DNA of 64,000 nt. It comes from Escherichia phage VEc20. The position numbers and the translations under genes were made by a program. The notes beneath the pieces were generated by a model. That model searched no databases and was not told the DNA's origin. It was given only the letters and a program-made list of their open reading frames with translations. Location of the stretch: sequence record MN022785.1; one strand, written 5' to 3'. Positions 30,961 to 63,765 of this stretch are shown piece by piece; positions within the stretch are counted from its first letter, which is position 1; each line of letters opens with the position of its first letter.

Positions 30961-31046
30961 TTTATTCTCCTTTGTTTGTGTAAGATAATACTATCACAAA
31001 GGAACCATACTGTAAACAACTTTATGCAATCTTTGGAAAATAAAAA

Positions 31047-31066
31047 AGGACTCCCGAAGGAGTCCT
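31047..31066 (-). terminator. hairpin AGGACTCC-CGAA-GGAGTCCT
   Basis: perfect 8-bp stem. Confidence 0.4.
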
Positions 31067-31070
31067 CAAC

Positions 31071-31289
31071 TTATGCTTTCTGCTTACCAAAACGAGAAGC
31101 ATCATCTCGAAGAACCGCACGTGCTCGGCGCATGATCTTCTCAACAGTTTGATTGATACGAGAGTTCGACCCACGCTTGTAGCCAGCGCGTTTAGAATCA
31201 CCAACTTTCTTTTCAACTGCTTTCTTTGCTTTAGCTTGTTTTGCCATTATAAATTCTCTTTTAAATGAAAATGCAGGACTTATTGGCAT
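31071..31289 (-). CDS. small basic protein (likely start at internal ATG, MAKQAKAKK...)
   Basis: K/R-rich 58-72 aa ORF. Confidence 0.4.
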   Translation of the reverse strand: MPISPAFSFKREFIMAKQAKAKKAVEKKVGDSKRAGYKRGSNSRINQTVEKIMRRARAVLRDDASRFGKQKA

Positions 31290-31645
31290 TGCCTGCGCAA
31301 GCCCTCAAGGGGAACATAGGTTTTTGGATATTTAACGACCAGGATAACCATAAACCCGTCATCATACCTTATAGCTCTTATCTGTTGCACACCGTTAGCT
31401 TAAAGGTTCCGGGTTCGATTTCTCGAGGATAAGATATATACTGATGGATATATAGGCCTTGAGGCGTACTCCCGATTGGCCATCACCTCGGGGTAGCATG
31501 CACTTGCCGCTATAAGAATAACATTCAAGAGGTACACCGTAAAACTGCCGGGGTCTTAAAACTATAATGATTCGCAAATCATTAATCAGACAGTTCGACG
31601 GCTCCTCGATTTTAGCTCACACTAAGGCAGTGAATCTCCAGTAAA

Positions 31646-31894
31646 TTACTTCAGTGTTACCACAAAGTGACGAACTGCTTTTCGTGCAGCAGAAGCCAAA
31701 GGCTTAGCATATTTAAGTTCATCTTTTTCCTGAAGCTCAGCAGCTAATGCAGTTTGAGCAGGATTCAGATGTTTGAAATAACGCAGGATTTCAAGAGCTT
31801 CGGCTTCAACATCAATAGATGCGCCATAGTTTTCGTGACCATTATTCCATGCGTTTCGTTGCAGTTCAAGAGCGTGTTGTAATTGTTTAATCAT
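31646..31894 (-). CDS. rIII: probable RIII lysis-inhibition accessory protein
   Basis: 82 aa, immediately downstream of gene 31 on the same strand as in T4; length matches T4 RIII from memory. Confidence 0.55.
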   Translation of the reverse strand: MIKQLQHALELQRNAWNNGHENYGASIDVEAEALEILRYFKHLNPAQTALAAELQEKDELKYAKPLASAARKAVRHFVVTLK

Positions 31895-32041
31895 TTAAAA
31901 ATTCTCGTTAGAGATTAAAACTCGGTAGTCACGTTCTTCTGAATTTCATCTTCTTTCGACAGATCTCTCAGTTGTAGACTACCACATAGAATTGTTCGGT
32001 TAACTTATTATTCCGACACCCAATTCATATTATTATTTATA

Positions 32042-32377
32042 TCACTTATAAAGACACGGAATAGCTTTATAGTGACAGGTAACAAATTTTTGTTTAATTT
32101 CTTTTGGCTGCTTAAGACCCAGAGCTACAAAAGGATGCGGAACATTTCGAATTTGACCAACTGGGAGAGAAGTCAAATCACCAACTTCGCAGAAACCTTC
32201 AGGAACATCAGGACCGACAGAGTGAATTACACACAGTTCAGGAACTTCACCTTGAACACGTTTACCGATAATAAGTCCTGATTCTGTAACTTCTTCATCA
32301 CCGGCTTGTGAAGGTTCAGAAACTAAAATAACATATTCACCGACAGCGCGAATTGGTAGCTGTTGTACTTCAGACAT
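32042..32377 (-). CDS. 31: GroES-like co-chaperonin for capsid protein folding
   Basis: 111 aa; [22 protein letters not shown]... matches T4 gp31 from memory. Confidence 0.9.
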
Positions 32378-63463: not shown

Positions 63464-63546
63464 AGACCTTCCCCTTATGTTTCTGTTTGCGATTAGATTC
63501 TTTAAACGCTTTCTTCTTATCCTTATGAACAGAAGCTTTATTAAAA

Positions 63547-63765
63547 TTATGTTTTGCGACTAAATTGTTCATAGTGCTGAATTACCTCTCTCAAACATTT
63601 GCATGTGAATGAAAACTTTTTAGCTACACCACATTCAAATATATGTTCTCTTAAATCACGTGTGTCAGTATATCCCATCTCAACAATAAAATGTCGTATT
63701 AGATTTTTATCTTTATCATTGAGAGAATTAAAATAATCGGATTTTGAATTAATTTCCCTGGCCAA
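63547..63765 (-). CDS. hypothetical protein with CxxC...C motif
   Basis: 72-aa ORF. Confidence 0.4.
   Translation of the reverse strand: MAREINSKSDYFNSLNDKDKNLIRHFIVEMGYTDTRDLREHIFECGVAKKFSFTCKCLREVIQHYEQFSRKT

Follow-up and report, generated by a model that had tools for sequence, protein, structure and literature searches.

A covariation-supported RNA fold in the non-coding spacer between rIII and 30.9 of T4-like phages

What fills the space between genes rIII and 30.9 in Escherichia phage VEc20? In the 64,000 nucleotides (nt) of its sequence record MN022785.1 that we analysed (the window), an earlier sequence-only reading had marked a gap of about 355 nt behind rIII as free of open reading frames (ORFs), and had offered a decayed gene, a structured non-coding RNA, or a regulatory or recombination site as explanations. 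The gap is real, and at 398 nt (31248-31645) it is larger than had been claimed. Of the proposals, the structured RNA is strongly supported by covariation, as a unit of about 150 nt on the minus strand and not as the whole 355 nt. Alignments of homologues show the centre of the gap to be a covariation-supported non-coding RNA fold, predicted on the gene-sense strand. We refer to this domain as the core, and conclude that it is very probably a functional structured RNA.

The evidence that carries this conclusion is comparative, and covariation, which had been fixed beforehand as a check, came out in favor of structured RNA. From a plain MAFFT alignment of 22 distinct copies RNAalifold derived a consensus of 8 helices with 44 pairs, and compensatory double changes occur in 19 of these pairs; 97.4% of the cells in this alignment are paired, a share that falls to 27-42% if the 3' partners are shifted by 1-3 columns, and none of 500 shuffles reached the observed values. 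A second set, of 28 distinct sequences aligned to a covariance model, adds the divergent copies of phages JC221, Olmo, EcS1 and fHe-Yen9-01 (locus L081). Here 99.0% of pair cells are paired, 29 of the 44 pairs are compensatory, with at least one such pair in each of the 8 helices, and the controls behave similarly (0/500 shuffles; slid partners 25-42% paired). The single-sequence centroid fold of the window reproduces all core helices.

The helices hold 64 G-U cells and no A-C cells, and therefore the structure exists on the minus strand only, the coding-sense strand for the genes on either side. None of the 28 distinct homologues has a frame that stays open through the core, and the longest stop-free runs lie in differing frames between phages. 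Insertions and deletions in the core are 1, 2, 4 and 7 nt long, which are not multiples of three, and substitutions are helix-compensatory, not third-position. Covariation on one strand, conservation above that of the coding neighbors (described below) and a lack of coding potential, the features by which a structured non-coding RNA is recognized, are thus all found at this locus.

The predicted architecture is intricate (Table 1). A closing helix, P1, leads into a four-way junction of P1, P2, P4 and P5 that has no unpaired linkers; one arm consists of P2 and P3 with a conserved asymmetric internal loop, and in a second arm P5 opens into a three-way junction with P6 and P7. The covariance model matches positions 31362-31520 with 187 bits (E about 1e-38), which is its sole match in the window, with no second copy found in the 64 kb, and the core is present once per matching record. 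All 5 consensus pairs of P1 are compensatory between lineages (CUUAUAGC/GCUAUAAG, UAAAC/GUUUA, CAUAC/GUAUG, ACAC/GUGU, AUUAG/CUAAU), as are 8 of the 10 pairs of P3 (CCCGA/UCGGG, CUCUA/UAGAG, CGGAU/AUCCG, CCGAU/AUCGG, GCAUCAA/UUGAUGC) and 5 of the 7 of P5 (CUUAUC/GAUAAG, UUCAUC/GAUGAG, UUCUAUC/GAUAGAA). P2 has one compensatory event, a C-G to U-A change in L081; an alternative local hairpin, GGCA/UGCU, is predicted in the same region, and L081 breaks this alternative and supports P2. Variants of P4 include AUACA/UGUAU, AUAUA/UAUAU, AUGUA/UACAU and GCGUA/UACGU, and those of P7 ACCCG/CGG, ACCUG/CAG and ACCCA/UGG. P6 pairs as UCGA/UCGA, CUGA/UCAG or CCA/UGG beneath a loop that is GAAA or GUAA in most members and GNRA in nearly all.

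Unpaired nucleotides are the most constant part of this fold. In the arm-1 internal loop AAGNGCAU faces CCU-NNN-G, and invariant nucleotides gather here, at the four-way junction and in the P7/J7-5 region, while helix tips and P1 vary; this is the pattern expected of an RNA whose tertiary core would be the functional part. The 18-mer GCUAACGGUGUGCAACAG served as a scan pattern and is hence identical by construction in the loci recruited with it, and the copies of Olmo (L049) and L081, which were recovered independently, depart from it in one or two nucleotides. Complementarity of the P7 loop to other sequences in the window did not exceed chance. Three strings that had been pointed out in the window as symmetric or tRNA-like are all present: GATATATA-CTGATG-GATATATA is the antisense of hairpin P4 and CCTTGAGG...CCTCGGGG that of the P2/P3 arm. 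The third, the T-loop-like GGTTCGATT, is an antisense coincidence at the P6/P7 boundary (AAUCGAACC), and with no tRNA gene called by ARAGORN in the whole window a tRNA or T-loop identity was rejected.

Table 1. Predicted RNA features of the rIII-30.9 spacer and the genes on either side (positions in the window).
Feature	Position	Strand	Basis or remark
Core structured RNA domain, P1 5' strand to P1 3' strand, ~150 nt	31368-31516	minus	covariance model, consensus covariation, centroid fold
P1 5' strand, CUUAUAGC	31509-31516	minus	pairs with 31368-31375 (GCUAUAAG)
P2-P3 arm	31464-31508	minus	P2 GGC (31506-31508) pairs with GCC (31455-31457)
Arm-1 conserved internal loop, AAGUGCAU	31498-31505	minus	within P2-P3 arm
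P3 bent hairpin	31464-31497	minus	tip length varies
P4 hairpin, UAUAUAU-CCAUCA-GUAUAUA	31435-31454	minus	4 of 7 pairs compensatory
P5 arm	31376-31434	minus	UCUUAUC (31428-31434) pairs with GAUAAGA (31376-31382); encloses P6 and P7
P6, UCGA-GAAA-UCGA, GNRA loop	31415-31426	minus	3 of 4 pairs compensatory
P7	31410-31414 with 31389-31394	minus	2 of 5 pairs compensatory (Olmo, C-G to U-A; L081, G-C to A-U)
P7 conserved 15-nt loop, GAACCUUUAAGCUAA	31395-31409	minus	GA(A/C)CC-UUUAAGCUAA, almost invariant
Junction strand GCAACA	31383-31388	minus	within P5 arm
Module M: AUGAUG, hairpin GACGGG...CCUGGUC with conserved loop GUUUAUGGUUAUC, then CGUUAAAUAUCCAAAAACC	31319-31365	minus	stem covaries
H1 hairpin, GUUCCCC-UUGA-GGGC	31301-31315	minus	motif GUACCC(C)-loop-GGGGCUUG; consensus GUWCCCC-loop-GGGGC
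Terminator-like hairpin, GCAGG...CCUGC, then AUUUUCAUUU	31263-31296	minus	15 nt upstream of the 30.9 start codon
rIII-proximal stem with inner hairpin UAAUGAUU-UGCG-AAUCAUUA (31565-31584), then UAGUUUUAAG	31537-31601	minus	minimum free energy and centroid folds
Gene rIII, lysis-inhibition accessory protein	31646-31894	minus	Lutter and T4 annotation; upstream neighbor of the gap
Gene 30.9, 58 amino acids, very basic, function unknown	31071-31247	minus	T4 and Lutter annotation (177 nt); downstream neighbor of the gap

The core is widespread among phages related to T4. BLAST searches with the gap matched about 990 phage records, and the central ~155 nt were found, with 91-100% identity and in the rIII-30.9 spacer, in about 410 records that span T4-like phages of Escherichia, Shigella, Yersinia, Klebsiella, Enterobacter, Citrobacter, Raoultella, Edwardsiella and Serratia. 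When the window was compared with phages Moon, PEi20, a Klebsiella phage, Serratia 4S and EnC07, the core interior was 84-96% identical, compared to 65-79% for rIII, gene 31 (gp31) and 30.9 in the same phage pairs; rIII proteins are only 64-77% identical. By this measure the core is shown to be under stronger constraint than the neighboring genes. A long spacer is kept at every rIII locus with a detected 30.9 homologue, measuring 120-295 nt without the core and 262-422 nt with it, and because of this conservation and the strong constraint on the core, the gap is more than a product of chance.

Outside this group of phages the searches returned little. The core occurs in 19 of 47 rIII loci from IMG/VR, and every confirmed JGI metagenome or IMG/VR match is on a contig compatible with an origin in a T4-like phage (165-175 kb where complete). 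In all collections searched, only T4-like phages of Enterobacterales have the core. When one genome per GTDB species was scanned with the pattern, a single match came up; the covariance model did not confirm it, nor did the model confirm pattern matches with other spacings (L031, L033, L036, L046) or L027. The model also found no distant homologues in T4, phi92, RB43, RB16 or KP15. BLAST found no match to the core in 5,426 E. coli genomes and just two 30-nt chance matches in PLSDB plasmids, and on these grounds we rejected the idea that a host or a plasmid has a copy of it or that it mimics an RNA of the host.

Alleles with and without the core differ by a precise unit. The T4 spacer is 244 nt long and lacks exactly window positions 31366-31520, with GA in their place, and phage phi92 carries a T4-type fragment of the region in which the same segment is missing. 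Other Tequatroviruses (loci L054, L056, L059, L060, L065) have a different insert, a hairpin of ~50 nt (ACUAUCACGCGUCAGAAAAAGGUUAUCUGUCUAAGUCGUGG), exactly at the core site (~31366-31520), and for this reason the site behaves as a cassette slot. Taken together, aligned sequences show that the core is gained or lost as an exact module. That T4 is among the phages without it may be why the core has apparently never been described. A sequence related to the ~50-nt insert was also seen downstream of a second conserved element of the spacer, module M (see below), in L071. The phi92 fragment deserves mention in its own right: phi92 is a Justusliebigvirus, not a T4-like phage, and its locus (L002, 2372-2703) carries a fragment with 98-99% identity, composed of the 3' part of rIII and the core-less T4-type spacer, inside a tRNA gene array and just upstream of tRNA-Gly. 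The fragment is a horizontal transfer between unrelated myoviruses.

A second genomic context exists. Divergent copies scoring 98-113 bits were found in JC221, Olmo, GAP161, phiEap-3, EC-F2 and about 15 more Pseudotevenvirus-type phages of ~175-180 kb, which gives about 21 phages with this arrangement; in them the copies lie downstream of uvsY and uvsY.-2 in a non-coding tract of 300-700 nt. This tract ends at a bidirectional terminator facing the convergent gene uvsW.1, and no conserved or annotated gene follows the core. In both contexts and in all members the core is co-directional with the upstream gene; the rIII stop codon is followed by the core immediately in Citrobacter phage Moon and after about 10-20 nt in EnC07, and no conserved promoter was seen ahead of the core across members. 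On these three grounds it seems that the core is co-transcribed with the gene before it (rIII, its probable co-transcript in the window, or uvsY/uvsY.-2). A promoter of its own, TTTACG-N17-TATTCT (31521-31550, 8/12 matches), was considered and rejected, because a start there would remove the P1 5' strand and because the core abuts rIII in other genera; the element is found ahead of the core in the window only. Its -10 element arrived with the core insertion and is absent in T4.

No known RNA family accounts for the core. The check that had been proposed for the gap, a scan against Rfam 15 (4227 models, including all riboswitch and ribozyme classes), gave no match in the window at gathering thresholds, and within 31248-31645 there was none even at E up to 10 with permissive filters. 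Sub-threshold matches to Atu_C8 and Phe_leader lie outside the gap and were set aside as terminator look-alikes; the former, a Rhizobiales small RNA, matches 31032-31115 on the minus strand, at the 3' end of 30.9 and its terminator, with 31.4 bits against a gathering score of 50 (E 4e-4), and looks like a resemblance of terminator hairpins only. Literature searches with gene names, keywords and the exact conserved sequences returned no description of the core. A review of T4 biology states expressly that neither riboswitches nor trans-acting small RNAs have been characterized from T4, and suggests the genomes of T4 relatives as a possible source of candidates (PMC3014915). The core is such a candidate, with a complex fold backed by covariation and steadier than the adjacent proteins across at least six genera. 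We could not find this RNA described, and regard it as a new family with no detectable relative; novelty of mechanism is a separate question.

Two kinds of phage-associated RNA invite comparison. The same review describes the T4 stable RNAs rnaC and rnaD (species 1 and 2 RNAs) as about 120-140 nt long, co-transcribed and processed, and of unknown function (PMC3014915). Like the core these are small RNAs encoded by T-even phages, but their locus is a tRNA cluster and the 3' part of rnaC reads as tRNA-like in sequence, a part that the core does not have; homology was rejected, as the model reached at best 6.3 bits (E 0.64) on T4 69.5-74.5 kb and BLAST with the core found no match in T4. A conserved complex fold defined by covariation is something that the core shares with GOLLD, ROOL and raiA. 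These are orphan structured RNAs found by comparative genomics, often associated with phages, whose biochemical function is unknown. The Rfam search gives no homology to them, and the core differs in being much smaller than GOLLD or ROOL and confined to T4-like phages of Enterobacterales.

What might such an RNA do? The reading we favor, and think probable though far from certain, is that the core is an autonomous, co-transcribed folded RNA module, not a leader for 30.9. It would be transcribed as part of the rIII (or uvsY/uvsY.-2) transcript and fold independently of its flanks, and the junction and loop nucleotides that hardly vary would together shape a tertiary pocket or surface, to which a protein, a small ligand or another RNA binds or which catalyzes a reaction. 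The core would then be an accessory, exchangeable module and not a leader tailored to 30.9, and the smaller elements of the spacer (M, H1 and the terminator-like stem) would be separate modules, probably setting the processing or termination of the spacer RNA. We prefer this to a 30.9 leader because the second context has no conserved downstream gene, because T4 has the hairpins without the core, and because module M can lie on either side of it. More tentatively, the core might be a ligand-sensing or catalytic RNA, which would make it the first such class in the T-even group: a four-way-junction domain of ~150 nt exchanged as a cassette, with its conserved loops as binding pocket or active site. 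It could, for instance, sense a metabolite of the host or the phage, or serve as a decoy for RNA-targeting defence or RNA-processing factors of the host.

Several points weigh against the autonomous module or limit the fold beneath it. The single-sequence folding energy is modest (z = -1.7 for the core and -1.2 for the whole gap), so the case rests on covariation and not on thermodynamics. Most members are near-identical, with an effective sequence number of 1.3 in the model, and covariation for this reason rests on roughly 8-10 lineages; the 28-sequence alignment (A4) was, moreover, fitted to the covariance model. In a small, more divergent MAFFT alignment RNAalifold recovers P1 and P4-P7 and swaps P2/P3 for a local hairpin because the region misaligns there, making the predicted P2-P3 arm less secure than P1, P4, P5, P6 and P7. 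Transcription, processing and stability of the core are all inferred, and it may act by binding or catalysis, in cis or in trans. Finally, about 95% of records show the classical layout of a riboswitch, with the core upstream of 30.9 and a terminator-like hairpin separating the two.

That layout leads to the first alternative, a riboswitch-like cis-regulator in which the core would be an aptamer in the 5' leader of 30.9 and a ligand would decide whether the 31263-31296 hairpin forms, and hence whether 30.9 is transcribed or translated. Its anatomy is aptamer-like: the closing helix covaries and is free in sequence, several helices meet in junctions, and the nucleotides of these junctions are near-invariant. 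In about 410 of about 430 records the core precedes 30.9 in the same direction with a hairpin and U-rich tract in between. The yybP-ykoY Mn2+ class and NiCo are riboswitch aptamers built on four-way junctions, and they resemble the core in size range, in a covarying P1 of free sequence, in the multi-helix junction with near-invariant junction and loop nucleotides, and in their usual position 5' of a gene with a hairpin and U-tract between. Against this reading, the Pseudotevenvirus-like phages have no conserved downstream gene and their core faces a convergent one, T4 and many other phages keep the same hairpins, the putative expression platform, and express 30.9 without any core, and the arrangement of core and hairpin is not fixed, with varying spacing and module M on either side. 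Inspection turned up no competing pairing of the P1 3' strand with the hairpin, no known riboswitch class in Rfam 15 was matched, and the function of 30.9 gives no hint of a ligand. Of what defines a riboswitch in general, we therefore see a conserved aptamer-like domain with a covarying closing helix, and see neither a consistent 5'-leader position nor a competing expression platform, and we consider this explanation unlikely.

A self-cleaving ribozyme or RNA-processing element, whose cut at one defined position would part the cistrons of the rIII-30.9 (or uvsY operon) transcript or give rise to defined RNA ends, seems to us more doubtful again. It could explain the intercistronic or 3'-terminal position of the core in two contexts and the extreme conservation of its unpaired nucleotides, and small ribozymes are common in phage intergenic DNA. 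The layout broadly recalls the natural hairpin ribozyme, which is a perfect four-way junction with two loop-bearing arms; the core likewise has a junction without linkers, and two of its arms carry conserved unpaired nucleotides and could dock against each other. One of these arms is a three-way junction and not an internal loop, however, and the core is about three times larger than the hairpin ribozyme, whose Rfam models do not match it. At about 150 nt it exceeds the small self-cleaving classes, and hammerhead, hairpin, twister, twister-sister, pistol, hatchet, HDV and glmS models gave no match in Rfam even at E up to 10.

We give still less credence to an element acting at the level of DNA. 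This could be a selfish mobile sequence that does nothing for the phage, or a folded single-stranded DNA or protein-binding site that serves recombination, homing or the initiation of replication. In favor of this, the core comes and goes as an exact module, other phages have a different insert in its place, it recurs at a second locus, and a T4-type spacer fragment has moved into phi92. A site in duplex DNA, however, would not keep 29 of 44 pairs compensatory, nor would it tolerate 64 G-U cells against none of A-C, a complete strand asymmetry that also disfavors the regulatory or recombination site proposed earlier. P6 carries a GNRA loop in nearly all members, the core is always on the transcribed strand and co-directional with the upstream gene, it is single-copy in the window and in each matching record, and it has neither terminal repeats nor associated transposase or endonuclease genes. 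Because P1 has diverged to saturation while the interior stayed constant, purifying selection is a better explanation for the conservation of the core than recent spread.

A decayed gene or an unannotated small protein gene, for which one could cite mechanical ORFs (60 amino acids from a TTG start, 31395-31577; 45 from a GTG start; 34 at 31261-31365) and several GenBank records that place hypothetical-protein coding sequences on the homologous stretch, can be dismissed as having almost no probability, since no frame is open across the core in 28 homologues, stop-free runs switch frame, indels are non-triplet and substitutions follow the helices, and since the intact ORF that related phages might have shown did not turn up, no candidate gene being seen in the spacer at 47 related rIII loci (at most 422 nt, examined without a systematic ORF scan).

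The core is present in hundreds of therapeutic and model phage genomes, where it is unannotated or mis-annotated as "hypothetical proteins". Because near-isogenic natural alleles exist with the core (this phage) and without it (T4), its function is directly testable by swapping a 155-nt cassette.

The rest of the gap is a mosaic of separate, smaller hairpin modules that are conserved and RNA-like. Module M has the loop consensus GUUNUNGGUYAUC followed by CGUUAAAUA (also given as CGUUAAAUAUCCAAAAC), and its stem covaries (GACGGG/CCUGUC, GUGG/CCAC, GUCGUAG/CUAGAC, GGCG/CUGCC). It was recovered in most rIII-30.9 spacers examined, including that of T4 (L004; most rIII loci among L054-L097). Whether it precedes or follows the core depends on the genus. 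A small ORF starting from its AUGAUG, 34 amino acids long in the window, was rejected, as it stops after 3-10 codons in other genera. The H1 motif is found once in the 64-kb window and recurs in both contexts (rIII-30.9 and uvsY.-2/uvsW.1), after the core or at the equivalent non-coding locus in JC221 (L007, ~1925-1945), Olmo (L049, ~2197-2215), RB43, RB16 and KP15 (L050-L052). It adjoins P1 in Klebsiella and Edwardsiella phages and is about 50 nt away from it in the window, with module M between. The terminator-like hairpin before 30.9, on which a simple terminator scan made no call, has an equivalent of different sequence in other genera (GGGAGC...GCUCCC, then AUGUAUUUCU), and the rIII-proximal stem, with its inner UNCG-type hairpin, is kept in Tequatrovirus, T4 and phi92 and not in other genera.

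These two flanking elements (31263-31296 and 31537-31601) may be modules of the terminator or PeSL kind. PeSL cassettes of T4-type phages consist of a stem-loop and a sigma-70-like promoter and occur in many copies per genome (PMC2839356, PMC4122927), with the early promoter consensus TTTACW-N17-TAYWAT (PMC4122927). The rIII-proximal stem together with TTTACG-N17-TATTCT is PeSL-like in the window. The core itself is comparable only in being a short conserved non-coding module that marks a site of modular insertion and deletion in T4-like genomes; it differs as a single-copy, covarying domain of eight helices with no promoter consensus, and, with no promoter or terminator called inside it, its identity as an intrinsic terminator or PeSL cassette was rejected.

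The neighborhood of the gap is that of a Tequatrovirus (T4-like) genome, and positions 31000-32000 are 100% identical in Escherichia phages slur03, slur08, slur14 and vB_EcoM_Lutter. The genes run, all on the minus strand, in the order cd, 31.2, 31.1, gene 31 (32042-32377), rIII, the gap, and 30.9 with its terminator. The 30.9 protein matches PHROG 1427 (function unknown) and no Pfam family. The length of 398 nt applies once the annotated 30.9 start is taken (31247, MAKQ...); the lower boundary of 31290 in the sequence-only reading stems from an upstream in-frame ATG at 31289, which would lengthen 30.9 by 14 codons (MPISPAFSFKREFI-MAKQ...). That ATG sits within the terminator-like hairpin and is not kept in other genera, and the annotated start is better supported. 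Between 31290 and 31645 lies the fourth largest interval of the window left uncovered by ATG-initiated ORFs of at least 70 amino acids, and the residual 31433-31645 is the second largest for those of at least 50. The statement that all other spacers are shorter than 60 bp was too strong, as there are spacers of 147 bp (31895-32041) and 110 bp (30961-31070), both next to rIII or 30.9, and one of 285 bp (63464-63748). The last of these, near the end of the window, is itself ORF-poor, with 285 nt that hold no ATG-initiated ORF of at least 50 amino acids on either strand.

In Pseudotevenvirus and Slopekvirus phages, the non-coding tract between uvsY.-2 and the convergent uvsW.1 is a mosaic of conserved modules (JC221, L007 1650-2340; RB43, L050 1987-2245; KP15, L052 1857-2185; RB16, L051). 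One stretch of it translates to the conserved peptide ...LRRP(I/M)EFTFG(E/G)VI(D/G)(K/N)IPSxKG..., with several synonymous differences between JC221, RB43 and KP15, and may be an unannotated micro-ORF.

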